A stretch of 64,000 nucleotides of DNA from Pirellulales bacterium (GCA_022451045.1 JAKUOW010000003.1:6224-70223), one strand, 5' to 3'. Positions 32,934 through 49,740 are shown, counted from the first letter of the stretch. Notes: a model not told the origin generated them from the letters alone. Program-made: numbers and translations.

Positions 32934-33821
32934 TTACTTAACAGGAACGTATCCCATCTCTGTTACAACTGCCTGACCGGCATCTGACATGATCCAGTCC
33001 AGGTATTCCTTTACATTTCCAGTTGCTTCACCAATGGTATAGATGTGCAAGGGTCTCGCAATTGGGTAAGTGTTGTTTATAACGTTTTCTGCATTCGGCT
33101 CAACAGCTTCTCCATCATCAGAAGATTTTATTTTGAGCATCTTTACATCAGGAGTTGCATAGCCCATCCCACTGTAACCGATGGAGTTGAGCGTTGTACT
33201 TACAAGAGCGACTACATCTTTAGAGCCACTTTGGTCGATGGAGCCGAGTTTAAAGTCTTCTTCATCCAAGACGGACTCCCGGAAATATGCATACGTTCCG
33301 GAATTGTTTTGGCGGCTAACACGGGTGATTTCATCAGCAGTGCCTTCAGGCATTGTGATCCCAATATCACTCCAGTTGGTGATGCTTCCGCTATCGGCAT
33401 AAATCGCTTTGAGTTGGCTAAGTGAGATTTCATCAATCGGATTGTCTTTATGAACGTAAACAGCGAGTGCGTCACGCCCTACAATTAGCTCGACAGGCTC
33501 TTTTCCTAGCTCATCCTTCGCTCTTGCCTTTTCTGAGTCCTTTACTTTACGGCTGGCATTTGCCATATCTGCCTGACCGCTAATAAGACTCTTAATGCCA
33601 ACGCCGCTACCGCCGCCAGAGACTTCGATTTCGACACTTGAATTGGACTCTTGATACTGTTCTGCCCATGCCTGAGCTAGATTGACCATTGTGTCAGAAC
33701 CTTCAATCCTGATTGCCGATTCAGCTTCGTCTTTGGTGGATCCATTGTCACCACTGCCGCCACATCCTGTGATCATGATTGCCACTGCAAGTAACGCGGC
33801 AAACTGCTTTATTCGTTTCAT
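32934..33821 (-). CDS. pstS: phosphate-binding lipoprotein PstS
   Basis: It has the lipobox AIMITGC and PBP-like motifs GSDTM, GGGSGVG and NNSGTY. It is the first gene of the pst operon. Confidence 0.85.
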   Translation of the reverse strand: MKRIKQFAALLAVAIMITGCGGSGDNGSTKDEAESAIRIEGSDTMVNLAQAWAEQYQESNSSVEIEVSGGGSGVGIKSLISGQADMANASRKVKDSEKARAKDELGKEPVELIVGRDALAVYVHKDNPIDEISLSQLKAIYADSGSITNWSDIGITMPEGTADEITRVSRQNNSGTYAYFRESVLDEEDFKLGSIDQSGSKDVVALVSTTLNSIGYSGMGYATPDVKMLKIKSSDDGEAVEPNAENVINNTYPIARPLHIYTIGEATGNVKEYLDWIMSDAGQAVVTEMGYVPVK

Positions 33822-33951
33822 TTCTTATTCCTACATTCTTTCTACGTCAACACACAGCTTCTCGAACCGCTTCGAGTGATATTGCTAGTAGCTGTGAAAC
33901 CATTTAATACGAGCATCGACAGCTCATATCACTTATGTGTATCACCACTAA

Positions 33952-33991
33952 GTTAAGAAAATGTTAAGAATTACTCATCGCATGGTAAGAA
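33952..33991 (-). promoter_or_regulatory. candidate Pho box: direct repeats TTCTTAAC / TTCTTAAC / TTCTTACC (minus-strand reading)
   Basis: On the plus strand, GTTAAGAA lies at 33952-33959 and 33963-33970 (11-bp period), and GGTAAGAA at 33984-33991 (21 bp further). The repeats sit 130-170 nt upstream of the pstS ATG. Confidence 0.45.
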
Positions 33992-34159
33992 ACAGGATGT
34001 TGATGTGAACAGCTAACGGTACCCACATTTAGCCACGACTTGGTGGATAGGCACCGATAACAAAGCTCCCAATTATTCAGAGTGAAATAGTTGACAGAAA
34101 GCCGTGAAAATCACGGATAATCCATCCAAAACAGGCTGCTTTGAATACTTGATTGAATC

Positions 34160-35629
34160 CTAAGCTAGCGCTTCTTCGACGATGTGTGCCTCATCCGGCC
34201 CAGTTAGACGCTGGTCAAGACCCTGGTAATAGAACGACAAGAGATTGTGATCCAATCCCATCAAGTGCAGTATCGTTGCATGGAAATCTGAAACGTGCAC
34301 GGGCCGATCAGCTATTCCAAATCCCAGGTCATCACTTGCGCCGATGGCCTGCCCGCCTTTGACTCCGCCACCAGCTAGCCACATGGTAAAGGCATGCCAG
34401 TTGTGATCACGACCAGGTTTCCCGATTCCTTCACTTGTCGGTGTGCGACCGAATTCACCACCCCAAACAAACAGCGTTTCATCCCACAGGCCAATATCTT
34501 TCATATCTTGCATTAAGGCTGCCATGGGCTTATCTGTTTCACCGGCATGAAGTTTGTGATTGGTGATACAGTCAGTGTGACCATCCCAGGTATCTTCGAT
34601 ATGGCCACCACCGGAGTAAAGTTGAATAAACCGCACTCCGCTCTCAAGTAAACGCTTGGTTATTAAACATTTTCTGCCAAAGTCGGCGGTGATTTTGTCG
34701 TTCAATCCATAACGTTCATGCGTCTTTGCTGATTCCTGAGACAAATCAACAACGTCCTTAGCGGCCACCTGCATGCGATATGCCAATTCGTAGGACTCGA
34801 TACGGGCTTCCAGTTCAGACTCGAATTTTCGAGTGCGTCGGTGTTGCTGATTGAGTGCTCCAAGTAAGTCCAATGACTTGCGCTGGCCACGATCGGTAAC
34901 TCCCTTTGGATTCTCCATGTTTAACAAAGGTGTGCCGCTGCTTCGGAACATGGTTCCCTGATATGCTGCCGGGATGTAACCACTACTCCAGTTTGAAGCG
35001 CTTCCAATTGGGCCGCCACGTGGATCGGTCATTACAACGTAGCCTGGTAGATCCTGGCTGATCGTTCCGAGTCCATAGTTTACCCATGAACCGATCGACG
35101 GGCTGCCGATTCCCACTTTCCCGGTATTCATCTGAATGCAACCGGAGGCATGTGCTGCGGTATCGGTGTAGCAACTACGAAACAGGCATAGGTCATCAGC
35201 ATGCGTGGATAGATGAGGATAGAGGTCGCTGATCTCCAATCCACTCTCGCCATGTTTCTGAAACTTGAATGGTGACTTCATTAAGTAACCAATGGCTCTT
35301 CCATTGGATCCAACTTCGAGCTCTCCCTTGTACTCTTCGCCATGGTGTTTATCCAGAACGGGTTTGGGATCAAACGTGTCAATTTGACTTGGGCCGCCAT
35401 TCATAAAAAAGAAGACACAGCGACTTGCTTTGGCTTCAAAGTGCGGCTTTTTCGGCGCCAACAATCCACTCAATCCCTCTTTGTCTTCAGCTCGCAATTT
35501 ATCAAAGAATCCGTCGCGACTGAGTAAGTCCAGCATCGCAAGACCTGTAAAACCCGCGCCGGTTTCCCAGAGAAACTCTCTACGCGAATTCCTACACGGT
35601 GTTTGATTTGGACTCATAAATCGATTCAT
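34160..35629 (-). CDS. DUF1501 domain protein (Tat-exported)
   Basis: It has the Tat motif SRREFLWETGAGFTGLAML and is paralogous to the other DUF1501 genes. Confidence 0.85.
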   Translation of the reverse strand: MNRFMSPNQTPCRNSRREFLWETGAGFTGLAMLDLLSRDGFFDKLRAEDKEGLSGLLAPKKPHFEAKASRCVFFFMNGGPSQIDTFDPKPVLDKHHGEEYKGELEVGSNGRAIGYLMKSPFKFQKHGESGLEISDLYPHLSTHADDLCLFRSCYTDTAAHASGCIQMNTGKVGIGSPSIGSWVNYGLGTISQDLPGYVVMTDPRGGPIGSASNWSSGYIPAAYQGTMFRSSGTPLLNMENPKGVTDRGQRKSLDLLGALNQQHRRTRKFESELEARIESYELAYRMQVAAKDVVDLSQESAKTHERYGLNDKITADFGRKCLITKRLLESGVRFIQLYSGGGHIEDTWDGHTDCITNHKLHAGETDKPMAALMQDMKDIGLWDETLFVWGGEFGRTPTSEGIGKPGRDHNWHAFTMWLAGGGVKGGQAIGASDDLGFGIADRPVHVSDFHATILHLMGLDHNLLSFYYQGLDQRLTGPDEAHIVEEALA

Positions 35630-35667
35630 GTCTTACTTTCACTAGCGTGAGACGAGTTATCTCTCGG

Positions 35668-37920
35668 TTAATCCGGATACGCGAACTCGTTGAGGTTGAA
35701 AATGACTCTGCAGATTTGAACGAGGGCTCTATATTCGGGTGACGTGGCCAACTTTCCATCCGCATCCTCTTCCCTGAACTTTTTTGTTTCCGTAGCGAGA
35801 AAGTCAGTCATAACTTGCAACTCCGTGGCTGTTGGTTCACGGCAAAGTGCAAGTTTAAATGCAAGCGTTATTTGCGCTGCTGAGCCATCACCGGCTTCAG
35901 TTTCTAATCGTTTGGCAAAATACTCTGCCTGTCGATTAACGAACTTGCCGTTAAAGAGAGTCAACGCCTGAGGCGCTACGCTGGTAACAATCCTTTGTGG
36001 CGTGGATTTGGTCGTATCACATAAATCCAGAACTTCTAAAAATGGCACAATCAGTGACCGCTTTACATAACTGTATATGGTGCGTCGATTTGCCTCTTCT
36101 TCATTAAACGCAGGCCAGATTTTCTGTTTGTCAGCATGGTTATCTAGAGCGTCGGACGGCACATATGGGTACATGCTGGGGCCGTACATTTTTCGGTTGA
36201 TTTGACCGCTGACTGCCAAAATACTATCGCGGATTGCTTCAACCTCTAGTCGGCGATACGGGCGTCTCCACAGTAAGTTGTTTTCCGGATCTTCTGCAGC
36301 ATATGACTCGTTCCATTCTGAGCTCATGCGATACGCATTACTCGAGAGAATCAATGCATGTAGCTTTTTCAGAGACCATTCGCCTTCATTGACAAACCAA
36401 TCTGCCAACCAGTCAAGTAACGCTTCGTGTGTCGGAGCTGCGCCCATTACACCGAAGTCGTTCGGTGTGCGAACAATACCAACGCCAAAGTGATGTTGCC
36501 AAACACGATTAACCAACACTCTCGCGGTCAGTGGGTTGGCATCACTGGCAATCCAATTCGCCAACGCCAATCTTCGACCGGTCGTGTGGTTTGTAGGATT
36601 ATCAAAATCCGGCTGCACGCTTGTAAGTACTGTCGGTACACCAGGTTGCACAACGGGTCCGGGACTGGACGCTTTGCCACGCACGAGAAGATTTGTTTCC
36701 GGTACGTTTTCAAGAGACTCGGTAAAGAAGTATCCACGCGGTAAATCGGGTGTTTCTTCTCTTAGGGCTTTGATAGCCTGCTTCGCCTGAGATAGTTGGT
36801 CCCGTTGTTCGTCGTTCAACCCGGAATCTGCATCTGCTGCAATCTCGTTGCGTTTGCTTGCAATCAACTTAACAGCATCTGAATCTCGATCGCCAGCCGG
36901 GGTCTTAAGTGCCTTCTGGATTGCATCATCCAGTTTGGATGTGCCATCTTGGATACGCTTCAGAGCAACCGCCAAATTGATCGAGTCGATGTTACTGTTA
37001 TGCTTTGCAATCTCACCATTTCGCTTCTGCTCATTGGCCAGTTGCTCAACACTACCAGCCGGCAAATCCAGATCTGACCTTCCGGATTGCGGTCGCGTTA
37101 GCGGATTGAAGATCGCGATCATCTTGTAATAGTCATGTTGCGTGAGTGCTTCAAACTTGTGATCGTGACAGCGGGCACAAGCAAGGGTGATCCCAAGAAA
37201 AACCTGACTCGTTGTGTTAAGCATGTCGTCGAGTTGATCGAACCGATCTTCAGCGAAATCAGCAGGCTCATCGTCAAATGGTCCCAGTCGATAGTAACCA
37301 GTAGCAATCACCGTACGTGAGTCAGCAGTTTCCAATTCATCGCCAGCAAGTTGTTCGAGGATGAATTGATTGAAGGGTACATCATCGTTGAGTGCTCGAA
37401 TGATATAGTCACGATATCTCCAAACATTTGGTTTCATACCATCACGTTCGTACCCGTTTGTTTCTGCATATCGCACGATATCCAACCAGTGGCGAGCCCA
37501 TCGTTCTCCGTATGCTTCACTTGCCAACAGTTTTTTAACAAGGTGATCAAATTGTTCCGGATCGCTGTTTGCATCGATGGCTGCCTGTTGCTTGAGCGTA
37601 GGTGGTAAACCGGTTAGCCCCAGGTAGAGACGTCGCCCAAGCGTTCCTGGAACAGCGGCAGGTGCAGGCTTCCAACCCTTTCGTTCCAACTTTTGCAGGA
37701 TAAACGCGTCGATGGGATTTCTTACCCAACGATCATTTTTCACTTGGGGAACGTCAGGCCGTTCGACTTTTTTGAATGCCCAGTGATCACGATCATCCTG
37801 CGTGATCTTTGCATCGCTCGCTTTAAGGTCAATGCTCACCTCCGGCATTTTGCCAGGTTCTTCAGCCAGCAGCGGAAAGGATATAAGTAGACAGAGCGTT
37901 ATAGAAAGTGATCTTTTCAT
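35668..37920 (-). CDS. DUF1549/DUF1553 (PSCyt2/PSD1) domain protein
   Basis: It carries CARCHDHKFE (CXXCH) and RVLVNRVWQHHFGVGIV. The start is ATG 37920 (MKRSLSITLCLLISFPLLAEE). The longer ORF to 38022 overlaps the upstream gene. Confidence 0.85.
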   Translation of the reverse strand: MKRSLSITLCLLISFPLLAEEPGKMPEVSIDLKASDAKITQDDRDHWAFKKVERPDVPQVKNDRWVRNPIDAFILQKLERKGWKPAPAAVPGTLGRRLYLGLTGLPPTLKQQAAIDANSDPEQFDHLVKKLLASEAYGERWARHWLDIVRYAETNGYERDGMKPNVWRYRDYIIRALNDDVPFNQFILEQLAGDELETADSRTVIATGYYRLGPFDDEPADFAEDRFDQLDDMLNTTSQVFLGITLACARCHDHKFEALTQHDYYKMIAIFNPLTRPQSGRSDLDLPAGSVEQLANEQKRNGEIAKHNSNIDSINLAVALKRIQDGTSKLDDAIQKALKTPAGDRDSDAVKLIASKRNEIAADADSGLNDEQRDQLSQAKQAIKALREETPDLPRGYFFTESLENVPETNLLVRGKASSPGPVVQPGVPTVLTSVQPDFDNPTNHTTGRRLALANWIASDANPLTARVLVNRVWQHHFGVGIVRTPNDFGVMGAAPTHEALLDWLADWFVNEGEWSLKKLHALILSSNAYRMSSEWNESYAAEDPENNLLWRRPYRRLEVEAIRDSILAVSGQINRKMYGPSMYPYVPSDALDNHADKQKIWPAFNEEEANRRTIYSYVKRSLIVPFLEVLDLCDTTKSTPQRIVTSVAPQALTLFNGKFVNRQAEYFAKRLETEAGDGSAAQITLAFKLALCREPTATELQVMTDFLATETKKFREEDADGKLATSPEYRALVQICRVIFNLNEFAYPD

Positions 37921-37921
37921 T

Positions 37922-39268
37922 TTACTTTCGACGTTGGTCGATGATCTTGGTGGCGACGCCTTCAATGCTGTTTTCACCCAGGGTGACATTGCCAACACCG
38001 TCGTTGATTTTGATGCCAACACGTTTCATCGGATTTCGATTTTCTTGGATGATATTATTTCGAATCAGGGTGTCTTTCGTTTGACCCTGGATTTCGATTG
38101 CAACACCTTCGCCATCACCGCTGTTGACCACGCGGTTGTCTTCAATCACATTTCGGTTTGCCCAAAAATCCTTTCCACGTGCATCGTCCCTGAAAAGGAT
38201 TCCGATGCGTCCACTGTCGATGACGTCGTTTCTCCGCATCACGTTGTCGGTATCACAGTGTCCAATGGAAATACCGTACTGGCTATTGCCTTTGATTTTG
38301 TTATCAACCGCCAGACCATATCGCACGCCCCAGCACCAGAAAATTCCAATGCCGTTGTTTTCAATTGTTGTGTTTTTGATGACGGGTCGTTGTGAGCCGG
38401 AGCCCGGATGCACTCCTAAATCGCCGTTGTCATGACTGTGACATCCATCAACGACTACGTCGTGGCAGATTTGAAAACTCAGCCCATCCCCGTTGTAATT
38501 CCGCATCGTGCAGTTGTTAAATGTGTAGCGGTTGCAGTCTTGCAGGAATACACAGCCCCCATAGTTGCCGTTCATGTTGGCATTGTTCTCTTTGTTACCG
38601 TCAAACGTCAGATTTTCAATCAGCACGTCTTCCGTGTATTCGCTGGTAAATAAAGGAAATAAGGAGGAGACGGTTGGCTTGCCGGTCAGCCAGATGTTTT
38701 TACGTAAGCCATCGTTGAGCTTGAAGCGATTACCACTTCGTGCAACCAGTGTTCGCTTGATCGTTGTTTGACCGCCATTGTGAGGATTCTTAGCCACGAT
38801 GAAGACTCCATCACCAACGCGAAATCCGGAGCGTTTTTCCAGCGTGATCTCCTGGTCGTACCAGTCAGAATCTTCCGAGACATTGACTTGCTCTGATGCT
38901 ATTTTCGTCACGATACTCTCATCGCCACTTCCCTGGATTCGTATTCGGGATGGCAGATGCACAGCATTTCTTAGTGTATAAGTGCCGGGCAGGATTTTCA
39001 CGGTACCGCCGCCAAGTCGTGCTATATAGTCGACAGCTGCCTGAAGAACACGATCGGATGAACCAACGAGGTCTGCCTTCTTTGGGCCAACCGTGATGGT
39101 CATTCGTTCTTCCCAATTCGGTTCGAATCGGTCGTCACCATCTGTCGCGCGAGGATTCGTTACGCTCGGTCGCTCGTCTTCTTTTCCAAAAAGGGGAGAT
39201 GCAATCGTCCCGGTCAACAGTGCTGAAGATGCGAGGAATTGACGCCGTTTGATTTGAGATAAATGCAT
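37922..39268 (-). CDS. Tat-exported right-handed parallel beta-helix protein
   Basis: It has the Tat motif IKRRQFLASSALLTG and beta-helix repeats with HCDTDN/NNGIGIF-type coils. Its stop lies 1 nt from the start of the DUF1553 gene. Confidence 0.75.
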   Translation of the reverse strand: MHLSQIKRRQFLASSALLTGTIASPLFGKEDERPSVTNPRATDGDDRFEPNWEERMTITVGPKKADLVGSSDRVLQAAVDYIARLGGGTVKILPGTYTLRNAVHLPSRIRIQGSGDESIVTKIASEQVNVSEDSDWYDQEITLEKRSGFRVGDGVFIVAKNPHNGGQTTIKRTLVARSGNRFKLNDGLRKNIWLTGKPTVSSLFPLFTSEYTEDVLIENLTFDGNKENNANMNGNYGGCVFLQDCNRYTFNNCTMRNYNGDGLSFQICHDVVVDGCHSHDNGDLGVHPGSGSQRPVIKNTTIENNGIGIFWCWGVRYGLAVDNKIKGNSQYGISIGHCDTDNVMRRNDVIDSGRIGILFRDDARGKDFWANRNVIEDNRVVNSGDGEGVAIEIQGQTKDTLIRNNIIQENRNPMKRVGIKINDGVGNVTLGENSIEGVATKIIDQRRK

Positions 39269-39424
39269 GATGATTTCATCCTTGCTGAACGTGAGAGTCA
39301 ACATAGCAACGCGATGGCAGAGAATGAATCTGCGTGCGTGGCAGTATGTTTATTTTACAGGGCTTTTAACAGCAATGCTCGTTTCAATTGCTGTTGGGAT
39401 CGAGCTTTAGAAATGTAAAGCGGG

Positions 39425-42400
39425 TTAGTTTAAAACCAAACCACAATACCCGACAACTTTTTCGTAGGAGCCTGTAATTTTACCACTGGTGTAATAGCCA
39501 ACTTCCGTGCATTGGTTTAACTCACCGCGATCTAAAAGTGCTTGCATCACAATTACGGCGGGAATCATTCCACACATGGAAATTTGATTTGTCTTTACCG
39601 TGTCGAATAACTGTTCAGGGTTAAGTGAATGCATGGCATCAATCGCTTTTCGATCAAGCGAGTTGTTTACCTCTTGGGTGCCGAAATGATGCATGTCACT
39701 TGAGATGATCAGTAGTGGTTTATTATCCAATGCATTGAGAACTGTATTTAATTCGTTAGCAAAGGTTGTGCATTCCTGAAGCGTTGCATTGCCCATGGCG
39801 ATTCCAACTACCTTGGTCTTTGGTGCTAACTTGGCAAGCAGAATCAACTCCATTTCAATACAGTGTTCCGACGCGTGAGCCCCAGCATCGAATTCCAATC
39901 CGGAGATGCCATCTACTAACTGAGTTGCCAAGCCCGTATCGGACTGCAATTCACATCCCGGCAAACTCCAACTGCTACATGGCGAAACGGCCCATGGCAA
40001 ACCGACCCGCGTGTGTTTTGGCCCAATGATGATTACAGTCTCTGGAATGTCAACTTGCCCTAATACATCGGCAGCAAGTTGTCCTGAGTAAATCAAGCCA
40101 GCGTGAGGCACCATGACAGCAGAAGCGGTAACTTTTGTATCCGGTGCATCTTGGATTAAGTCCTCCACCACTCTATCAAGTTCCTCTTTTGTGCCTGGAT
40201 AAAAGGCACCCGCAACAGCGGGAGGTCTTGGGCCCTCAAAAGATCTGGCCTTGGGAATGCGTGTGTAGTGGAGTCTTTCGGTTGTGCTGTTCACCGCAAA
40301 ACTAATTAATTGGGCATGCTCGATACTTGTCGAGGGTAACTTGCTGCGGATGGTGTCAATTAGTGACTTGATGTCGCTGGAACTATCGTATGCGGCGATG
40401 AGCACATTCTCATCCATGGCGACAAGCATCCGGGTGGTTGTGTCCAGCGACAAATCGCTTACGTCGGACAGTCGACCGTGTATGGCCGGATCATCGAGAA
40501 GGGCGAGGCTTGGTGTTGAAGTTGATACAAAATCACTTGCACCAGTATGGGACTGTGACAATTGGCCGGCCAGGTTTTGTGCGTTTTGCAGGAGCGTGGA
40601 ATGGAGTGGCACTGTCTTGTTCATTGCGAACTGCATTACGCCAATGGTCGATCCATCCTCGTGTGTTAGTTGGTAAAGCAGGCCTTTTACATTTCCATCG
40701 GGGATACCGGGCATCACATAACTTGGTGTGGCACCCGTCAACATTGCATCGATATTCTGATGAGTCATCAGGGCAAGCTGTCGGAGTGACTGGTTGTTTA
40801 TAAAGCTGCACGCTTGTTGAGATGGCAGTTGGGTAAGGTACGCATTTGGCATTGGGCCTTCTGTGACGATCGTTTCAAAGGTTTCCAATGAGGCATCATC
40901 TGATTGCCAGGCGTCAATTGGTATGCCTGCTTTTCGACAGACCATTTCCAGAAATGCACGTTCGTCGGCGTGGTGTTCAACAGCCACCACCGGTAACAAG
41001 AGACCACGCTTACCAGACTGCTCGATGATCAAGCCGTGCTTGCCAATTTCAATATGTTCGTGTCTCTCTTGTGCATTGCAGGTCACCGGCTGGATGTTGT
41101 GAAGTAGTGACACATCGACATCAAGTTCAGGCAATTCAGAGGGTGAAACCGGTGGAAATCGCGGATCACTGGTCGCAGTCCTTCGCGCGGATTGATCGAG
41201 AGCGTGGATTAGCTTCATGGGTTGCCCTAGTACACCACAGCAGCTTCTTAGAGTTCCGTTTTTCTTGAGCGTGACAAATGCCCCCATCACCATCTCTTTG
41301 TCTGCTCCTTCAAGAGCAGCGACACTTCTCGTCTCCTTGCTTGCACACACTTCATCGCAGACTACCTGACATGCGAGTGCATGAATCGCCTGTTCCTGAC
41401 TCGAGCTCAATTCGATTGCAGCGGTGTTTTCCATTTTCTGGGACTCGGAAGGAGGTGGAGTTTGCTCTTGTGCGTTTTGCGGTAGCTCTAGCGTAACAAA
41501 ATCACGGATTTTTATTGGCTGTCGCCCGGCTCCCCATGTACCTGGCTGTGGAGCAAAACAGCCGGGTATCTCTGAACTACATTTGCTACAGGCATTGAGA
41601 TTGAGATTGTATACGCCCAATTTGTACCAATCGCGCTCAATTAGTAACTCCCCGCACGATGCGCAAAATGTACTTTGGTGTTTCACATCATGTACGTTTC
41701 CTACATAGGGATATTTGATTCCTTGACGACGTGCGACTTCGTAAGCCCTGAGAAGCGTCTCATGTGACGTTCTTGGCCGGTCTTGCATTTTGAAGTCTGG
41801 ATGAAAGGCCGTGAAATGAACTGGTACTTCGTCACCGCAATGTTCCAGGATCCAGTCGCAAAGCTCTCGTAGCTCCTCGGTACTGTCATTGGCGTCGGGG
41901 ATCACGAGATTAGTGATTTCAAACCATGTTTGCTGGAATTCGCTGAGCCACTTTAGTGTTTCCAGCACAGGCTTGATGTGTGAGTACGTGAGGTTGAAGT
42001 AAAACTCTTCGGTGAAAGCCTTTAGGTCGATGTTTGCCGCGCTCATGTGAGAGAAAAATTCTTCACGAGGCTCATCGGAAATGTACCCCGCGGTAACCGC
42101 AATGGTCTCGATATCGCGCTGATGGCATTCGATGGCGGTATCAATTGCATACTCTGCCCAAATCACCGGGTCGTTATATGTGAATGCAACACTTTTGCAT
42201 TGGTGGTGTTGGGCAGCTGTGGCAATGGCCTCCGGCATCGCGACTTCACTGAGTCGCTGCACTTCACGGGATTTGGAAATATCCCAATTCTGACAGAATT
42301 TACACCCAAGATTACAACCGGCTGTCCCAAAGCTGAGCACACTGGTACCAGGGTAGAAGTGATTCAACGGCTTCTTTTCGATTGGATCGATACAAAAACC

Positions 42401-42610
42401 AGTGCTACGACCATATGTCGTTAGCATCATTTCGCCATTGATGTTTTGGCGAACAAAACAGAATCCGCGGTCACCCTCCTTTAGATTGCACTCTCTTGGG
42501 CATAATTCGCATAAGATGCGTCCCTTCTCGGCATCACGCCACCAACCACCACTTAAGTGTCCATCACTCGTTGGAGTTGATGGCGGAGGTGTTGTGATAA
42601 TTCGTTGCAT
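39425..42610 (-). CDS. AmmeMemoRadiSam triple fusion: radical SAM enzyme + AMMECR1 domain + unassigned domain + Memo-like domain
   Basis: - Radical SAM: CNLGCKFC (CX3CX2C) at aa 99-106 (42293-42316), with flanks typical of the PflA-like AmmeMemoRadiSam radical SAM enzyme.
- AMMECR1 (about aa 405-585): GAFVTLKKNGTLRSCCG, DPRFPP, GKHGLII, RGLLLP.
- Memo (about aa 796-1061): AGAFYPG, VPHAGLIYSG, GPKH, SSDMHH, SMCG. Confidence 0.85.
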   Translation of the reverse strand: MQRIITTPPPSTPTSDGHLSGGWWRDAEKGRILCELCPRECNLKEGDRGFCFVRQNINGEMMLTTYGRSTGFCIDPIEKKPLNHFYPGTSVLSFGTAGCNLGCKFCQNWDISKSREVQRLSEVAMPEAIATAAQHHQCKSVAFTYNDPVIWAEYAIDTAIECHQRDIETIAVTAGYISDEPREEFFSHMSAANIDLKAFTEEFYFNLTYSHIKPVLETLKWLSEFQQTWFEITNLVIPDANDSTEELRELCDWILEHCGDEVPVHFTAFHPDFKMQDRPRTSHETLLRAYEVARRQGIKYPYVGNVHDVKHQSTFCASCGELLIERDWYKLGVYNLNLNACSKCSSEIPGCFAPQPGTWGAGRQPIKIRDFVTLELPQNAQEQTPPPSESQKMENTAAIELSSSQEQAIHALACQVVCDEVCASKETRSVAALEGADKEMVMGAFVTLKKNGTLRSCCGVLGQPMKLIHALDQSARRTATSDPRFPPVSPSELPELDVDVSLLHNIQPVTCNAQERHEHIEIGKHGLIIEQSGKRGLLLPVVAVEHHADERAFLEMVCRKAGIPIDAWQSDDASLETFETIVTEGPMPNAYLTQLPSQQACSFINNQSLRQLALMTHQNIDAMLTGATPSYVMPGIPDGNVKGLLYQLTHEDGSTIGVMQFAMNKTVPLHSTLLQNAQNLAGQLSQSHTGASDFVSTSTPSLALLDDPAIHGRLSDVSDLSLDTTTRMLVAMDENVLIAAYDSSSDIKSLIDTIRSKLPSTSIEHAQLISFAVNSTTERLHYTRIPKARSFEGPRPPAVAGAFYPGTKEELDRVVEDLIQDAPDTKVTASAVMVPHAGLIYSGQLAADVLGQVDIPETVIIIGPKHTRVGLPWAVSPCSSWSLPGCELQSDTGLATQLVDGISGLEFDAGAHASEHCIEMELILLAKLAPKTKVVGIAMGNATLQECTTFANELNTVLNALDNKPLLIISSDMHHFGTQEVNNSLDRKAIDAMHSLNPEQLFDTVKTNQISMCGMIPAVIVMQALLDRGELNQCTEVGYYTSGKITGSYEKVVGYCGLVLN

Positions 42611-42826
42611 TTAATAGTAATCCTGTACGGGAATCCAACCGCTAATAGCGACGACATCTGAATTTGAACTGATCGAATCGCGATAACGTATGGGATGATA
42701 ATCAGGGTGTTTTAGCTGAGAGTTCATCGTATAAAATAGACGAATTACGATGTTAGAATCCATGGTTGTCTGTGAAAGTCAGCAATCAGTTTGATGTTTT
42801 GAGTTGATCACGCTAGGAGAATACTC

Positions 42827-44335
42827 ATGGCAAAGTCACAAAATCGCACACTTTTCGGTTTCTTGTTTTTCTGTGCCATCGTTACCGGTACTGTAATTAG
42901 CATTTCATTTCCCCAGTTATTTACGGACTGGGCATATGCTCAACAGCGTGACGTGGCAGTAGATGCTCAAAGAGAAATTGCATCTGCAAAGGATCTCTCC
43001 TCAGCATTTAAAGCTGTGGCCAAGCGCATGCGCCCATCAGTCGTGAGTATCACCAGTAAATTTGAACGCAGGACGTCGAATCAAAACCCGTTTGGTGGGC
43101 AGCAGATCCCAGAACGATTTCGTGACTTTTTCAACGACGAATTCTTTGGGCGTCTTCCTCAGTCTCCAGGTCAACGACCTCAACCAGAAGGTGTGGGAAG
43201 TGGTACTGGATTCATCGTCAGTGGTGACGGCTACATATTGACTAATAATCATGTAGTCAGTGGTGCGACATCGATTACCGTCACTCTTTCTACATCCAGG
43301 GAATTAGAGGCACAGGTTGTTGGAAGTGATAAGGCGACGGATCTGGCAGTCTTGAAAGTACCAGCCGGTGATTTGTTGCCAGCGAAATTAGGTAGCTCGG
43401 ATGCCATGGAGGTTGGTGATTGGGTGCTCGCAATTGGAAGCCCCTTTGGTCTGGACCAGACGGTTACCGCAGGCATCATTAGTGCCAAAGGCCGTAGTCG
43501 TGTTGGTATCACTGACTATGAAGATTTCATCCAAACGGATGCTGCCATCAACCCTGGCAATAGTGGTGGGCCTCTTGTAAACCTCAACGGTGAGGTGATT
43601 GGGATCAACACTGCAATTGCATCGAAGACCGGCTCGTATATGGGTATTGGATTTTCCATACCGAGCGATATGGCGAAATTCATTAAAGACAGCATCATCA
43701 AGAGTGGAACAGTTGAGCGAGGATATCTGGGTGTGTTAATCCAGGATCTTGACGAGAATCTGGCTGATTCATTCGGCTACTCCAGCACCGAAGGTGCACT
43801 TGTTGGGCAGGTTGTTGAGAGTGGTCCCGGGGCTATGGCTGGTCTGAAGGAAGGCGATATTATCACTCATTTGGGTGATACCAAAATCCTCACGATGCCT
43901 CAGCTCAGAAACACGGTTGCAGCAACTGTGCCAGGTACGGAATTGCAGTTAAAGGTGTTCCGTGATGGCAAGACGATAGATGTTGTCGTTACCGTTGGTA
44001 AGCTCGACACAGAGGCTGTTGCAGCATCGACTCAGGCGGATAATACAACAGATGAAGTTCTTGGAATCAGCGTTGAGTCTCTCACACCTGACAAATCCAA
44101 GATGCTCGGGTATAGTGCAGACCTTAAAGGCGTACTTGTTGCCGATGTGAAACAACGCAGTTTAGCTTCGCAGGTTGGCGTCCAGCCTGGTGATATTATC
44201 CTTCAAGTTGGCAATACGAAGGTAAAAACAGCTGATGAATTCACCAAGGTGATGAGCGAGAGTGATGTAAAGCAAGGTATTCGTATTCACATACTGCGTG
44301 GTGGAGTAACTAGGTTCATCTTTATTCGAACCTAA
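42827..44335 (+). CDS. Do/DegP/HtrA-family periplasmic serine protease with two PDZ domains
   Basis: The catalytic triad context is TNNHVV, DLAVLK and GNSGGPLVN, followed by two PDZ-like segments and preceded by an N-terminal signal/TM. Confidence 0.9.
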   Translation: MAKSQNRTLFGFLFFCAIVTGTVISISFPQLFTDWAYAQQRDVAVDAQREIASAKDLSSAFKAVAKRMRPSVVSITSKFERRTSNQNPFGGQQIPERFRDFFNDEFFGRLPQSPGQRPQPEGVGSGTGFIVSGDGYILTNNHVVSGATSITVTLSTSRELEAQVVGSDKATDLAVLKVPAGDLLPAKLGSSDAMEVGDWVLAIGSPFGLDQTVTAGIISAKGRSRVGITDYEDFIQTDAAINPGNSGGPLVNLNGEVIGINTAIASKTGSYMGIGFSIPSDMAKFIKDSIIKSGTVERGYLGVLIQDLDENLADSFGYSSTEGALVGQVVESGPGAMAGLKEGDIITHLGDTKILTMPQLRNTVAATVPGTELQLKVFRDGKTIDVVVTVGKLDTEAVAASTQADNTTDEVLGISVESLTPDKSKMLGYSADLKGVLVADVKQRSLASQVGVQPGDIILQVGNTKVKTADEFTKVMSESDVKQGIRIHILRGGVTRFIFIRT

Positions 44336-44386
44336 TCTCTAAATGCCATTCAGCCGAATACGATTACGGCAACTATAGGAATCGTA

Positions 44387-45226
44387 ATGGAGTACACTGT
44401 CTGGCACTATGCTTGCCTGGCGACGACGCTATTCGGCAGTAGCTTACTTCAAGCTGTGGTCGGATTCGGTGCAGGTGTGTTTGGCATCCCGATATTGATG
44501 CTTTGCGGATTCGATGCACACGTGGCAATTATCGCTGTCAGCGTGGGTTCCATGTGCCAGGCAATGATGGGATCGATGAGCCTCAAGGGTGACATCGAAT
44601 GGCATCGAGCATTTAGGCCAGCTATTTTTCGCCTGATTTGGATGCCACTGGGTGGCTATTGCCTCTGGCTCGTCGGTAACATGGGTCAACAACAAGTGCG
44701 TCAAGCGATCGGCATTGTCTTGTTGCTGATCGTATTTGTACGTGTACGGGTTAAAGTCATACCGACGGAAGAACTCCACATCAAATGGGAGTATATTGCT
44801 TTCTCGATTAGCGGCGTTTTGTTGGGATTCTGTGGAATGGGTGGACCAGCAGTTGCACTCTGGGTCATGGCGCAACCTTGGAATCCCAGAAAGTCCCGGG
44901 CATTTCTGTTTGCCATAATGTTTCTGGGAATGATTCCGCTTTTTATCCAGTTCTATGTCATGTACCCGGATGATGCGCTCTATGCAATGTTGCTCGGACT
45001 GGCGACATTTCCCACTGTATTAATAGGTGGTGTCGTGGGGATGAAAGTCGGGAATAAACTTGAGCGAGATCGATTGCAAAAATATACGCTGGTCCTGCTC
45101 ACTGTGATCGGTATAAGTGCATTGCTTTCACCCTACTTGCGACCTGCCTCAGAAGGTGCTGCTAAGCCTTCTGTTGAAGACGCAGCAGAGCATCAGGTAA
45201 TTCCTGGATTGCCGAATAAGTGTTGA
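44387..45226 (+). CDS. TauE/SafE-family (sulfite exporter-like) membrane protein
   Basis: 279 aa, multi-pass, with GFGAGVFGIPIL / GMGGPAVALW repeats typical of the family. Confidence 0.6.
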   Translation: MEYTVWHYACLATTLFGSSLLQAVVGFGAGVFGIPILMLCGFDAHVAIIAVSVGSMCQAMMGSMSLKGDIEWHRAFRPAIFRLIWMPLGGYCLWLVGNMGQQQVRQAIGIVLLLIVFVRVRVKVIPTEELHIKWEYIAFSISGVLLGFCGMGGPAVALWVMAQPWNPRKSRAFLFAIMFLGMIPLFIQFYVMYPDDALYAMLLGLATFPTVLIGGVVGMKVGNKLERDRLQKYTLVLLTVIGISALLSPYLRPASEGAAKPSVEDAAEHQVIPGLPNKC

Positions 45227-45268
45227 GCGATTGGTACTGAAACGTGAGTTTTGTTCCGCGATGAATGA

Positions 45269-46117
45269 CTAGATATCCAGCCGGTAGAAGTCGATGGCAG
45301 TGCCACCAAAGAGCCGGTCCATTTCGGAGTCGCTGAGTGGACCGATGACCTGACAAAGAGCATCGTAAACTTGATCATATGTTCCAGCCAGTTCGCAGAC
45401 TGGCCAGTCTGAGCCAAACATACATCGTTCGACTCCAAAGGCCTCGAGTGCCACTTCAACGTATGGCTTTAAGTCTGAAGGCCTCCAATGTTGCCAATCT
45501 GCTTCTGTGATCATGCCAGATAGTTTGCAATACACATGCTCGTGTTTTGCTGCATCCTGGATGTGCTGTGTCCAGTTGTCCATTCTTCCAGCTTTAATTT
45601 CCGGCTTGGAAATATGATCAATCACGAGAGGCAGGTTCGGTAATAAACTTGCTACAGTCTTCGCATGATGCACGTGTTGGACATAAAAGAGCAGATCGAA
45701 AGGGATGTTATGTTTTTCCAGTACCTTTAGCCCCGTAATGATCTCATCTCGAACGATGAAATCTACATCCGGTTCATCCTGCGTAATGTGCCTGATTCCG
45801 ACGAACTTCGGATCGTCAACAAATTGTGCCAATTGTTCTTCGCAAACATCGCTTGCTAAATCTACCCAGCCGACGACACCAGCAATAAATGGATTTTTAT
45901 TTGCCAACTCCAATGCCCATGTGTTTTCACGTATATCATGTTGCGTTTGCACAAAGACGGTCTTGTCGATTCCAACCTGAGATATACGAGACACGAGATC
46001 ACTGGGCATGAATGACCGATTGATGGCCTCATTTCCTTCAGCGCCTAGCCAGCCGTATTCGAATTCAGTTCTGTTTAAATCCCAGAAATGTTGATGAGCG
46101 TCGACGCGTATGGTCAT
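45269..46117 (-). CDS. amidohydrolase-2 family lactonase (L-fucono-1,5-lactonase-like, COG3618)
   Basis: It has the N-terminal metal motif RVDAHQHFWDL and a typical length of 282 aa. Confidence 0.7.
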   Translation of the reverse strand: MTIRVDAHQHFWDLNRTEFEYGWLGAEGNEAINRSFMPSDLVSRISQVGIDKTVFVQTQHDIRENTWALELANKNPFIAGVVGWVDLASDVCEEQLAQFVDDPKFVGIRHITQDEPDVDFIVRDEIITGLKVLEKHNIPFDLLFYVQHVHHAKTVASLLPNLPLVIDHISKPEIKAGRMDNWTQHIQDAAKHEHVYCKLSGMITEADWQHWRPSDLKPYVEVALEAFGVERCMFGSDWPVCELAGTYDQVYDALCQVIGPLSDSEMDRLFGGTAIDFYRLDI

Positions 46118-46126
46118 TAGGTTTAC

Positions 46127-47071
46127 CTATATGATCGGAGTGTCGTTATTCTCTTCCCGACCCTCGATATAAAACCAGTTGTGAATGGGCTTTAGGATTT
46201 CTTGAACTTCCGATACCAACTGGGTATCGAGGGGGTCGTTAATCCAGTCAGCCCATTGGCGAATTCGCCCGGGATTGGCAGAACCAGTCACGCAAGTTGT
46301 CATGTCTGGATTTGCAATCGAGTATTGCAAGGCTAGTTGTGCGATATCAATGCCTGCCTGGCTACAGTGGTCAGCGGCTTGCTTGCAGATGTTACGGACC
46401 TGATCGGTTGCTTTGTGCCATGGAGGGAGACCCGCATTAGTGAGCAGACGAGCTGAAAACGGTGCCGCGTTTAGGATACCGACTCCCTTTTCCTTCAGAT
46501 ACGGAGCAAGATCGCCAAACATGGTGTTTTGAAGAGTGTAGTGATTGTAAGAAAGTACAACATCAAGATCTGTTTGATCCAGGACAAACTTAAAGATCTT
46601 CATCGGATATCCGGACAGGCCGATGTAGCGAACTTTTCCTTGCTGCTGAATTTCACGCAGTGCAGGGATTGTCTCATCAACCACCTGTTGCATCTCAACA
46701 AACTCGATGTCGTGGCACAGGATAATATCTAGATAGTCCGTGCCAAGGCGGTGTAGTGATACATCGACGCTTTCGCGCACTCTCTTAGCAGAGAATTCAA
46801 AATGCGATTCATGGTACCGTCCGAGTTTAGTTCCCAGATAGTATTGGTCACGCGGGATGCCCTTCAGCGCGATTCCCAACAGTACTTCTCCGATTCCTCG
46901 TCCGTAATACGGAGAGGTGTCGATGAAATTCATGCCGCAATCAAGTGCAGTTGGGACGGATTGAAGTGCATCCTGTAAATCGACAGGTACAAACTCTGAC
47001 CCAAGTGATGAGGCTCCAAAACTAATGACCGACAGTTGCATGTCGGTATTTCCAAGCTGTCTGAATTCCAT
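46127..47071 (-). CDS. aldo/keto reductase (aldose 1-dehydrogenase-like)
   Basis: It shows the AKR pattern GASSLG...IDTSPYYG...LGTKLGR...HD. Confidence 0.75.
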   Translation of the reverse strand: MEFRQLGNTDMQLSVISFGASSLGSEFVPVDLQDALQSVPTALDCGMNFIDTSPYYGRGIGEVLLGIALKGIPRDQYYLGTKLGRYHESHFEFSAKRVRESVDVSLHRLGTDYLDIILCHDIEFVEMQQVVDETIPALREIQQQGKVRYIGLSGYPMKIFKFVLDQTDLDVVLSYNHYTLQNTMFGDLAPYLKEKGVGILNAAPFSARLLTNAGLPPWHKATDQVRNICKQAADHCSQAGIDIAQLALQYSIANPDMTTCVTGSANPGRIRQWADWINDPLDTQLVSEVQEILKPIHNWFYIEGREENNDTPII

Positions 47072-47099
47072 CAGAGATCCTCTGATCTACGGGTGCTTG

Positions 47100-47549
47100 T
47101 TAGCCATCCATGCGGACGCCGATTGACAACAGCAAATTAGCAAATCGTTGTTGGTCTGCTGTTTGGATGGTTAACACATGGTCTGGCGTATCTACTGCTT
47201 TATAGAAGTCCCATTTTTCAATGGGTTCCAGTTCCACTCCAATATTTGAATTAGCGAATACATCACGATATTCATTCCAAACAGGTGGATCACCATCCAG
47301 AGCATACGGTCCTGTTGTTTCATAATTCATCGTGTTTGCTGCTTCGATTGGAATAGCCGTCACGAGTGCTTGTAACACCTGTGTGCATGTCACTAGCCCC
47401 GGCGAGAGGTTGAGACTGACCAATTCAGCATTCGGTCCTAGCGTTGAGGAACATGGGTAATTGCCATCGGCGATAAGAATCTTACCGTGATGCCCGGCGC
47501 GTCCCAGTACTTCGTTGATTTTCGGATGGATTAGTTGGTGCTTTAACAT
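47100..47549 (-). CDS. fucU: RbsD/FucU-family sugar mutarotase (L-fucose mutarotase-like)
   Basis: 149 aa, starting MLKHQLIHPKINEVLGRAGHHGKILIADGNYP, which matches the FucU/RbsD N-terminus. Confidence 0.65.
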   Translation of the reverse strand: MLKHQLIHPKINEVLGRAGHHGKILIADGNYPCSSTLGPNAELVSLNLSPGLVTCTQVLQALVTAIPIEAANTMNYETTGPYALDGDPPVWNEYRDVFANSNIGVELEPIEKWDFYKAVDTPDHVLTIQTADQQRFANLLLSIGVRMDG

Positions 47550-47582
47550 GCTTTAATTCCTATCTCCCGTAACAGGTAACAA

Positions 47583-48884
47583 CTACATCCCGGACTGTAG
47601 AGCATCAAGATGACGTGCAAAGTGATCCTCTAATACATCCGCATATGTATCGGGATGTTGAACTAATATGTCACGTACAAGCGGTCCCAGTTTCTCATCA
47701 GTAAGAACAGATCCAAATGTGCAGTGAAGAATCTGTCGTCCTGCAAAGGTAAAGCCTTTGCCTTGCGGTACTTCATCCCAAAGTTCCAGATATTGCCTCT
47801 CAAGCTCGACGATATCAGAATCTTCCTGAACCGGAGGTGCAGTATCTTACGTTGCATGTACGTGGTACGTCGCGTTGTCGGTTAAATACCGACCACGTGC
47901 AAAATCAACGATCTCCCGAAATAGAGATTCATCATGACGTGCGACGACGCGTAGAGCTTCAAGGTAGCTCGTCCCAGCCGTTTTGACATGGAATAGTCCA
48001 CCGGTTGCTTTGGCCAGCAGGCCGTACATGGAAATCTTATCACTACCAGAGTGCAAGCTTAGCTTGTAAGGGCCCAGTTCTTTTGCCAACGCTGCATGGT
48101 CATGTAGCGAGATATCTAATGCATCCAGATCACCGATGAAATCCACTCCTTTTTCGAAGTGACCAATGAATCGAGGTGCAAGGCTAACAAGTTTCATACC
48201 GTTACTTAAGCAACGATCCGCGATGATATAGTGTTCTGCAAGAGTAGTAGGTTGCTCTGTTTCATCTACACTCAACTCGATTTCATAGTCACGACCGAGA
48301 CCTTCGTGTACCTCGTCGATGTAGTTGCAAAGTGAAAGTGCTTCGTTAAGTGCGATACCGTATTTCACGGCTGCTCGCAGGCAGGCTTCTTCATCCAATT
48401 GAAACGAAGTGCCTGTACTTAGTGTTACTGATTTCCCGCGGTAGCTATCGATCCAGCTAACCTGGTCACGAATGTCAGCAAACTTTGATTCCAATGTGGC
48501 CTGATCATATGTGTCGGAATGTTCATCAACGTGATCAGAAGGATCAATAGTAAAAAAGGTAAATCCGACGGCGGCAGTTACATCTACGTCCTCTGGAGTC
48601 TTTAGATGATCTGCATCAGCACCTGTGACATCAGTCCATCCCGATGCAACCATGTCGCGCAAGGCATCTTCCATTACTCCTGTCGGCGTGCGTTGTGTGC
48701 GTGTCATTTCCCGAATGGACTGCTGCGGGTAAATGGCCTTTATCCCGGCACCGGATCGTTTCATGGAGGCAACGTGACCTGGAGTTGCTAATCCGGTGCG
48801 ATCTCCGAATCCGAAACTCGGCTCCAGCCCTAGTGTGACGGGTTTTGGAAGTTGTTCTAGGTTGTTGTTCATCAAGTGATCCAA
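47583..48884 (-). pseudogene. UxaE-like (tagaturonate/fructuronate epimerase family, tentative) gene interrupted by an in-frame TAA at 47847-47849
   Basis: A 345-aa ORF (47847-48884, with an SFGFGDRTGLATPGH motif) is followed in the same frame by 87 further sense codons (47586-47846), reading ...RQILHCTFGSVLTDEKLGPLVRDILVQHPDTYADVLEDHFARHLDALQSGM. These end at TAG 47583-47585, 33 nt before fucU. Confidence 0.6.
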
Positions 48885-48924
48885 ACTCTGTTAATGGGTG
48901 TGTTGTGTGTAAGTCGGTCTGCTA

Positions 48925-49740
48925 CTAGCCGAAGTACTTATTGAATGAGTCGATCGTCTGTTTTGCAGCAGCATCCGGATCTGGATATGCAAATGCTTCA
49001 GCGCTGATGAAACGATCGTATTGGATGCTTCGAAGCGCATCGACGATTGGTTCGTATGACATGTGTCCGAGTCCGGCAGGCCGGCGGTTGGAGTCAACAA
49101 AGTGTACGTGGCCGATTGCTGAACCAGCATCACGAATCGCCTGCGAGATACATGTTTCCTCGATGTTCATGTGGAAGAGATCCGCTAGCAGGACGCAATT
49201 GTGGCCATCATTTAACGAACTAAGGAATTCGACTCCGTCAGCCATCGTGTTACACAAATTTGTTTCGTAGCGATTGAGCGGCTCATAAATAAGTGAAGCG
49301 CCATACTGAGAAGCGTGTGGACCAAGCTCATTGATCGCTTCCCCTAACAATGCCAAAGCATCTGCCTTGGGTAAGTCCGCATTCCATCGGCCCTGCATCG
49401 AACCGATAATTGCAGAAGCACCAAATTGCCCAGCCAAATCAATAATGCTTCGAACAAAGTCCTTTGCTCGTTGCCGTTCGGTGGCATCTGTGGATGTTAA
49501 GGACAATCCATGTTTGACCATGCCTGCACCCGTACCAACAGCCGCTAATTCCAGACCGTGGTCAGACAGTAATGATTGAAGCAAGTCGGTGTCGACGGCT
49601 TCAACGCCCGGTGGAAATACTTCTACTGCATCAAAGCCTAATGCCTTGGCTTTCTCGCAGCCATCGCGTAGACCGTTCCAGAATATAAAGGGGCCACCTC
49701 GTGCTTCTTCCACGAGACTAATAGTTACACATGATTTCAT
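48925..49740 (-). CDS. sugar phosphate isomerase/epimerase (xylose-isomerase-like TIM barrel)
   Basis: 271 aa with the AP_endonuc_2-type pattern (FDAVEV..., YEPLNRYETN, HVHFVDSNR). Confidence 0.7.
   Translation of the reverse strand: MKSCVTISLVEEARGGPFIFWNGLRDGCEKAKALGFDAVEVFPPGVEAVDTDLLQSLLSDHGLELAAVGTGAGMVKHGLSLTSTDATERQRAKDFVRSIIDLAGQFGASAIIGSMQGRWNADLPKADALALLGEAINELGPHASQYGASLIYEPLNRYETNLCNTMADGVEFLSSLNDGHNCVLLADLFHMNIEETCISQAIRDAGSAIGHVHFVDSNRRPAGLGHMSYEPIVDALRSIQYDRFISAEAFAYPDPDAAAKQTIDSFNKYFG

Follow-up and report, generated by a model that had tools for sequence, protein, structure and literature searches.

The subject of this analysis is a fused AmmeMemoRadiSam gene in a 64,000-nt stretch of DNA from a Pirellulales bacterium (GCA_022451045.1 JAKUOW010000003.1:6224-70223), called the window below and used for all coordinates. 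The gene is a single open reading frame (ORF) on the minus strand. Its product combines a radical S-adenosylmethionine (radical SAM, or rSAM) domain, a canonical AMMECR1 domain, a domain of predicted AMMECR1-like fold that we call A', and a Memo domain. It is almost certainly a genuine four-domain AmmeMemoRadiSam system on one polypeptide. The parts of the gene, with positions in the protein given in amino acids (aa), are:

39425..42610, minus strand: the fused AmmeMemoRadiSam ORF, in the order rSAM - linker - AMMECR1 - A' - Memo; ATG start, 1061 aa plus stop, 3186 nt
41507..42544, minus strand: radical SAM domain, aa 23-368 (TIGR04337), related to the pyruvate formate-lyase (PFL)-activating enzyme
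41381..41506, minus strand: flexible low-complexity linker, aa 369-410, recognized by its length variation and low model confidence
40868..41380, minus strand: canonical AMMECR1 domain, aa 411-581 (TIGR04335, PF01871)
40229..40822, minus strand: A', second and degenerate AMMECR1-fold domain, aa ~597-794, as predicted by an AlphaFold model and Foldseek
39434..40228, minus strand: Memo domain, aa 795-1059 (TIGR04336, PF01875)

Domain identity was judged by the curated NCBIfam cut-offs. The radical SAM profile TIGR04337 matches aa 23-368 with 570 bits (cut-off 220), covering profile positions 3-349 of 349. TIGR04335, for protein A or AMMECR1, matches aa 411-581 with 139.7 bits (cut-off 99), and TIGR04336, for protein B or Memo, matches aa 795-1059 with 237.4 bits (cut-off 26). 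Pfam agrees on the three domains (PF04055; PF01871, 143.6 bits; PF01875, 188.1 bits). All three components of the system are present above cut-off, and their genetic linkage takes the form of covalent fusion in one ORF. An earlier reading of the window, made from the sequence alone and referred to here as the sequence-only reading, had proposed a single ORF with radical SAM, AMMECR1 and Memo modules, and these profile matches bear it out. The motifs that it quoted as intact all fall on invariant columns of an alignment of 40 full-length fused homologues, the sample used for residue conservation below unless another is given. Its count of three modules was too low: the protein has four folded modules, three of which keep their cofactor-binding and active-site residues, and the AMMECR1-like fourth had been overlooked. 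Of the two domain junctions that it placed, the one between rSAM and AMMECR1 stands, as the true flexible linker (aa ~369-410, 41381-41506), and the other, at 40226-40860, is instead a conserved domain of about 200 aa.

A gene of this kind could arise by error, if two or three neighbouring genes had been merged by misassembly or by a sequencing frameshift. The genes are indeed separate in other phyla, one homologous locus (L020) is split in the linker, and another (L031, a long-read metagenome-assembled genome, MAG) carries frameshifts. Against this, an independent metagenome contig in ENA from a 99%-identical strain (L085) carries this ORF at the same length of 3186 nt; the two copies differ by 31 substitutions, in 16 synonymous and 14 non-synonymous codons, and by no indel. 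When 5.8 billion proteins were searched, at least 120 clusters matched over nearly the full length at 48-53% identity; their proteins are 1042-1185 aa long and have the same three Pfam domains. The whole architecture also lies in one uninterrupted frame at about 20 loci from species-representative genomes. Furthermore, the order here is rSAM-A-A'-B, whereas proteobacterial genes are arranged B-A-rSAM or B-A divergent from rSAM, so a simple merger of that operon cannot give this ORF. The same domain order does occur in other taxa, and orthologues inspected for stop codons or frameshifts at the junctions show a conserved fusion and no assembly or frameshift artefact. An assembly chimera is effectively refuted by the independent assembly and the orthologues, and the chance that the gene is an artefact of any kind is negligible. 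In L031, which is labelled Planctomycetaceae, the fused gene is broken into three frames in a manner that looks like long-read frameshift errors. A planctomycete-type four-domain fusion is also found in L015, a locus labelled uncultured Alcaligenaceae, which suggests mis-binning.

The predicted structure of the full-length protein has a mean predicted local distance difference test score (pLDDT) of 83.4 and a predicted template modelling score (pTM) of 0.57, and reproduces the folds of MEMO1, AMMECR1 and the PFL-activating enzyme. Confidence collapses in two places, aa 95-119 and aa 373-394. The first is the cluster-binding loop, where low confidence is expected because the cluster is absent from the model. 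The second lies in the linker, where pLDDT is below 50. The linker has many P, S, T, Q and E residues and no conserved sequence, and its length ranges from 41 to 84 aa in the 40 aligned homologues and up to ~154 aa in a wider set of 120. AMMECR1, A' and Memo are joined by connections of a few residues only. The model thus suggests a compact AMMECR1-A'-Memo body with the rSAM domain on a tether.

The rSAM domain contains three conserved cysteine sites, all identified by conservation:

42296..42319, minus strand: CX3CX2C radical SAM [4Fe-4S] motif, C98-C102-C105 (CNLGCKFC)
42461..42514, minus strand: N-terminal four-cysteine site, C33, C36, C40 and C50 (CX2CX3C...C)
41582..41668, minus strand: C-terminal CX2C...CX2C site, C315, C318, C340 and C343, zinc-ribbon-like

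C98, C102 and C105 are invariant in the 40 fused homologues and in 61 stand-alone rSAM homologues. The other two sites are invariant in 62 sequences, which include stand-alone rSAM genes of other phyla; a beta-hairpin (aa 321-333) is predicted between the cysteine pairs of the C-terminal site. Judging from sequence, the N-terminal site is probably an auxiliary metal or Fe-S site; the metal assigned to either site is putative. The domain is 55-64% identical, over the best aligned segment, to stand-alone rSAM genes, with which it has all 11 conserved cysteines in common. Among characterized radical SAM enzymes, the PFL-activating enzyme (PFL-AE), PflA, is closest to it in both sequence and predicted fold. 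The closest solved fold is PFL-AE 3cb8, with a template modelling (TM) score of 0.71 on the target, and 8fo0 is also among the best. The PFL-AE profile TIGR02493 matches the domain with an E value of 2.5e-15 and 56.5 bits, far below its cut-off of 231.75, and the two additional four-cysteine sites lie outside the segment that matches this profile. No glycyl-radical enzyme occurs among the neighbouring genes scanned (window 32934-49740). The rSAM domain is a relative, not a member, of the glycyl-radical-enzyme activases.

The canonical AMMECR1 domain retains the motifs L-R454-S-C456-C457-G458 and D481-P-R483-F, of which R454, C456, G458, D481 and R483 are invariant. Its fold matches archaeal AMMECR1 1vaj (TM 0.84 on target). 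These motifs are of the R-G-C-h-G and D-x-R-aromatic types defined for the AMMECR1 cleft (Balaji and Aravind, 2007; PMC2034487). The Memo domain matches human MEMO1 3bcz (TM 0.81 on target), to which its metal ligands align residue by residue in the motifs PHAG, GPSH, SSDFCH and ICG. The metal-ligand positions H835, H865, D971, H974 and C1012 are invariant, and they correspond to His49, His81, Asp189, His192 and Cys244 of MEMO1. Human MEMO1 (3bcz, 7kq8, 7l5c) and archaeal AMMECR1 (1vaj, 1zq7, 1wsc) thus have the same folds and keep the metal-ligand positions and the cysteine cleft motifs; they differ in being single-domain proteins, and structural-alignment identity is 22-23% for Memo and 28-35% for AMMECR1.

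Between these two domains lies A', nearly constant in length among homologues (206-214 aa). N618, P628 and H710 are invariant in it, and D706, G711, R663, P667-Q669, R726 and W738 nearly so. Sequence searches gave nothing significant, and the fold is therefore identified by predicted structure: a Pfam scan of 23 members gave no hit, only scattered single matches at E >= 0.017, and a profile search of PDB sequences gave no true hit and one chance match at E 0.35. When A' was folded alone by AlphaFold with a 23-sequence alignment, the predicted model had a mean pLDDT of 92.9 and a pTM of 0.86. AMMECR1 structures take the first five places among the Foldseek matches of this model in the PDB (probability 1.00, E 2e-6 to 2e-4), and the matches at E <= 0.001 comprise only the three solved AMMECR1 proteins (1zq7, 1wsc, 1vaj). 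These alignments span 193-223 columns with TM scores of 0.41-0.58 and 10-14% identity; the next-best match has E 0.03 and probability 0.07. A comparison of A' with the neighbouring AMMECR1 domain by hhalign is colinear over the whole domain and weak (E ~1e-3, probability 10-16%). In this alignment the R-x-C-x-G and D-x-R positions are replaced in A', which has no conserved cysteine. From the models, A' appears to be an AMMECR1-fold duplicate with a predicted loss of the catalytic site, and not a member of the family by sequence or active site.

A' is narrowly distributed. An A' profile run against 1.84 billion representative proteins returned only 227 clusters, with match lengths of ~1050-1150 aa for forms with rSAM and ~656-730 aa for forms without it. 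In all ten architectures checked A' lies between AMMECR1 and Memo (AMMECR1-A'-Memo or fragments of it); the only rSAM-bearing form among the ten is truncated, at 943 aa. A' is absent from the AMMECR1-Memo fusion of Verrucomicrobiales and from the Memo-AMMECR1 fusions of Alpha- and Gammaproteobacteria and related MAGs. A Phycisphaerae locus (L021) has a spacer of ~217 aa in the place of A' that the A' profile does not detect. No description of A' was found in the literature reached, a search that did not cover Burroughs et al. 2019. The presence of an extra, inactive AMMECR1 copy in planctomycete forms hints at a paired mode of action for AMMECR1, with the pair docked to Memo.

The sequence-only reading presented the triple fusion as remarkable, which overstates the case. 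The fused gene is present in Pirellulaceae, Planctomycetaceae, Fuerstiella, Gimesia, Planctomyces, Singulisphaera and one Phycisphaerae MAG; fusion is the usual architecture in Planctomycetota, neither rare nor new. The cultured Fuerstiella marisgermanici encodes it in a complete genome (CP017641.1; protein P0042, 1071 aa). JGI already names such proteins 'AmmeMemoRadiSam system radical SAM enzyme/protein B/protein A', and NCBI names them by the rSAM part alone. The Fuerstiella protein and those of Pirellulaceae and Planctomycetaceae MAGs have the same four-module order, are 1042-1185 aa long and have invariant catalytic residues, and they differ from the window protein in gene neighbourhood and in being just 48-53% identical to it. 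The best match among GTDB species representatives is 49% identical over the full length. The lineage of the window is therefore without a close sequenced relative, except for metagenome contig L085 (99%). The triple fusion is an architecture known to databases, to which the window adds one fairly divergent member.

Outside the Planctomycetota, the three families occur as neighbours or partial fusions in Proteobacteria and Verrucomicrobiales, and that they are normally separate neighbouring genes, as had been stated, is so in other phyla. The gammaproteobacterial three-gene system is defined by the same TIGR04335/04336/04337 families, all three of which are above cut-off in the window protein, but its genes are separate, arranged Memo-AMMECR1-rSAM or Memo-AMMECR1 divergent from rSAM, and it is without A'. 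Two-part fusions, in which AMMECR1 and Memo are covalently joined as in the window protein, take three forms: Memo-AMMECR1 (Alpha- and Gammaproteobacteria and related MAGs), AMMECR1-Memo (Verrucomicrobiales) and AMMECR1-A'-Memo (some Planctomycetota). The proteobacterial form has the opposite order and no A', and the verrucomicrobial form has a spacer of only ~20 aa. Planctomycete forms alone carry A', and only some of those carry rSAM too.

The separate neighbouring genes of other phyla make a Rosetta-stone inference of functional coupling reasonable. Burroughs and colleagues are said to have linked Memo to nucleotide-base and isoprenoid modification. AMMECR1 was linked in 2007 with a radical SAM enzyme and a ring-opening-dioxygenase-like protein, AMMECR1-dioxygenase fusions were described, and RNA base modification was predicted for the linked system (PMC2034487). 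A 2020 paper mentions 'recently-described Memo-Ammecr1 systems', citing Burroughs et al. 2019 (PMC7159879), and AMMECR1 is listed among the top-priority uncharacterized archaeal families (PMC6393860). Since the linkage and the AMMECR1-dioxygenase fusions were described in 2007 (PMC2034487), the triple fusion adds little beyond what the operon implied. It had been claimed that the fusion argues for joint action on one substrate in fixed stoichiometry. Functional coupling is a reasonable inference from the linkage elsewhere (PMC2034487; PMC7159879); fixed stoichiometry is not secure, given AMMECR1-A'-Memo genes without an adjacent rSAM gene and a start-like linker Met with Shine-Dalgarno (SD)-like motifs in relatives, as we discuss below.

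The fusion junction bears the marks of an internal start site. In 112 of 120 homologues the AMMECR1 domain is preceded by a Met at a distance of 5-40 residues, with modes at -25 and -14, where composition predicts a linker Met in about half of the sequences; the residue after the conserved Met is mostly S, T or A. An SD-like motif (GGAG, GAGG or AGGA, 4-16 nt upstream) precedes the linker Met at 8 of 19 fused loci, compared with 24 of 450 control Met codons from the same ORFs (~5%; Fisher p = 8.6e-6), although the homologues are phylogenetically related, so that both the Met and the SD counts overstate independence. In the window the corresponding codon is at -14, with no SD-like motif upstream:

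41435..41437, minus strand: linker Met392 codon, putative start of an ancestral AMMECR1-A'-Memo gene, either a relic or still in use

At locus L020 the gene divides into two frames precisely within the linker, and genuine stand-alone AMMECR1-A'-Memo genes without an adjacent rSAM gene occur at L087, L088 and L089. The linker Met probably marks where a once separate AMMECR1-A'-Memo gene began. Taken together, the conserved linker Met, the SD-like motifs, the L020 split and the free-standing AMMECR1-A'-Memo genes would be read most simply as signs that the fusion arose when an rSAM gene came to be read through into an AMMECR1-A'-Memo gene downstream of it. A '668-aa' database entry (P0123) was also considered as a two-gene form and was rejected as a gene call at a contig edge.

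A mechanism can be proposed tentatively, and it could well be wrong. In it, the rSAM domain would reductively cleave SAM, its predicted activity, to give a 5'-deoxyadenosyl radical. The AMMECR1 cleft would hold the substrate, from which the radical would take a hydrogen; Cys456 may serve as nucleophile or radical relay. That same molecule would also undergo a coupled step, redox or oxygen-dependent, at the mononuclear metal centre of Memo. A' may be a non-catalytic scaffold or substrate-binding partner, possibly mimicking the second subunit of an AMMECR1 dimer, and would dock and position Memo beside the active AMMECR1. The substrate would be encoded or made elsewhere and, following the published predictions, may be an RNA base, a nucleotide or an isoprenoid-type molecule. 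The explanation that we favour overall joins this mechanism to the four-domain fused system and the read-through origin, and it is somewhat better than an even proposition. Several points weigh against it. The pTM of just 0.57 for the full-length model bears on the relative placement of the active sites, and the tie between A' and AMMECR1 is weak in sequence (the hhalign probability of 10-16% given above) and depends on predicted structure. We infer the order of steps and the roles of Cys456 and A'. The literature reached holds no substrate, reaction or biochemical data for the system. Finally, the nearest characterized relatives of the rSAM domain, the glycyl-radical activases, act on proteins, and by this analogy a modification of the protein by itself may fit at least equally well.

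Such self-activation would have the PFL-AE-like rSAM domain act in cis on the tethered AMMECR1 or Memo, for example on the R-x-C-C-G loop, and install a radical or a post-translational modification, after which the AMMECR1-A'-Memo body would act on the real metabolite. It draws on the fact that the only characterized rSAM relatives are protein-acting activases of glycyl-radical enzymes (TIGR02493; 3cb8, 8fo0), and on the long flexible tether, which is what an in-cis activase needs. It would also explain a missing substrate gene: an all-against-all comparison of flanking ORFs at 24 fused loci found no conserved substrate gene adjoining them, in line with the earlier observation that no candidate substrate gene is adjacent in the window. 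No glycyl-radical-type motif was noticed in AMMECR1 or Memo, in the course of work that included no search aimed at one; the free-standing AMMECR1-A'-Memo genes do not lie beside an rSAM gene; and in eukaryotes AMMECR1 and MEMO1 work in the absence of this rSAM partner. On this evidence self-activation is improbable. A bolder version, and a long shot, makes the protein its own first substrate, which would account for the lack of a substrate in every neighbourhood, with rSAM modifying or radicalizing the conserved Cys-Cys-Gly loop of the active AMMECR1 domain in cis while A' mimics the dimer mate and docks Memo. If true, this would place AMMECR1 in a new kind of enzyme, one activated by a radical or matured post-translationally.

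The internal start could also still be in use. Additional initiation at the linker Met (Met392) would then release a free AMMECR1-A'-Memo protein of ~670 aa, and rSAM and the other modules would not be present at a fixed 1:1 stoichiometry. This is compatible with the favoured explanation of a fused system that arose by read-through. Retention of the Met in 112 of 120 homologues, in a linker that is otherwise unconserved, followed by S, T or A, speaks for it, as does the SD-like motif, which is present in 8 of 19 relatives and at 5% of the other Met codons in the same ORFs. Three homologues that lack the Met (P0106, P0009 and P0011) have a Val in a similar linker context, as seen by eye at the protein level. 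However, the window itself has no SD-like motif before Met392, 8 of the 120 homologues are without a linker Met, and the counts come from related sequences, which overstates their independence. The pattern could be the decaying relic of the pre-fusion start, and of the '668-aa' proteins in databases at least one is a gene call at the edge of a contig. A dual product is thus rather unlikely, less so than self-activation.

Conservation of AMMECR1 and Memo extends from archaea and bacteria as far as humans, in whom both have been linked to disease. If the protein were its own first substrate, there would be a concrete hypothesis to apply to AMMECR1 and MEMO1 as human disease proteins. Having all partners on one polypeptide is convenient for expression, structure determination and activity screening. 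The sequence-only reading saw in the fusion a handle on the chemistry; the handle is not specific to the window, since cultured Planctomycetes offer the same protein.

The fused gene is flanked in the window by the following genes:

42827-44335: divergent HtrA-type protease
44387-45226: TauE-family gene
37922-39304, minus strand: beta-helix/NosD-like gene, downstream of the fused gene on the same strand
35668-38022, minus strand: PSCyt2/PSD1 ORF, of a family typical of Planctomycetota

The neighbours also include a DUF1501 gene, likewise of a family typical of Planctomycetota, which with the PSCyt2/PSD1 gene occupies 34160-38022 and gives the locus Planctomycetota-typical surroundings. At 45269-49740 lies a cluster of sugar-acid type, with an amidohydrolase, an aldo/keto reductase, a UxaE-like epimerase and a xylose-isomerase-like TIM barrel. 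The PSCyt2/PSD1 ORF, as called mechanically, overlaps the upstream beta-helix/NosD-like ORF by ~100 nt. Its true start is probably an internal codon, because in the near-identical L085 the PSCyt2 gene is called after the end of the NosD-like gene.

Little of this neighbourhood recurs. In the comparison of the 24 fused loci no flanking family was found at more than 4 (5 for DUF3467 after tblastn). DUF1501-like ORFs occur near the fused gene in 4 of the 24, on varying sides and strands; DUF1501- and amidohydrolase-like ORFs recur in 3-4 of them, and the other surroundings seen in the window are not conserved near the fused gene. The only recurrent neighbour is a DUF3467 protein of ~210 aa, which could be a partner or a substrate. 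Its gene is the immediate upstream neighbour of the fused gene at five loci of Pirellulaceae type (L003:5259-5906, L004:5237-5869, L005:1380-1943, L009:5332-5859 and L023:5355-5903), and the immediate downstream neighbour of the stand-alone AMMECR1-A'-Memo gene at two (L087:5067-5699 and L088:5067-5699). DUF3467 has no homologue in the 64-kb window.

Scans for promoters and terminators gave counts at or below shuffled expectation. A perfect 9-bp hairpin with a 10-nt loop, AACAGCAAT ... ATTGCUGUU, lies 30 nt past the stop codon of the fused gene (window 39368-39395, minus strand). It is without a U-tract and is thus not a classical intrinsic terminator. The 70-nt fold that contains it after the stop has a predicted energy of -13.5 kcal/mol, with z = -2.7 relative to shuffled sequences.

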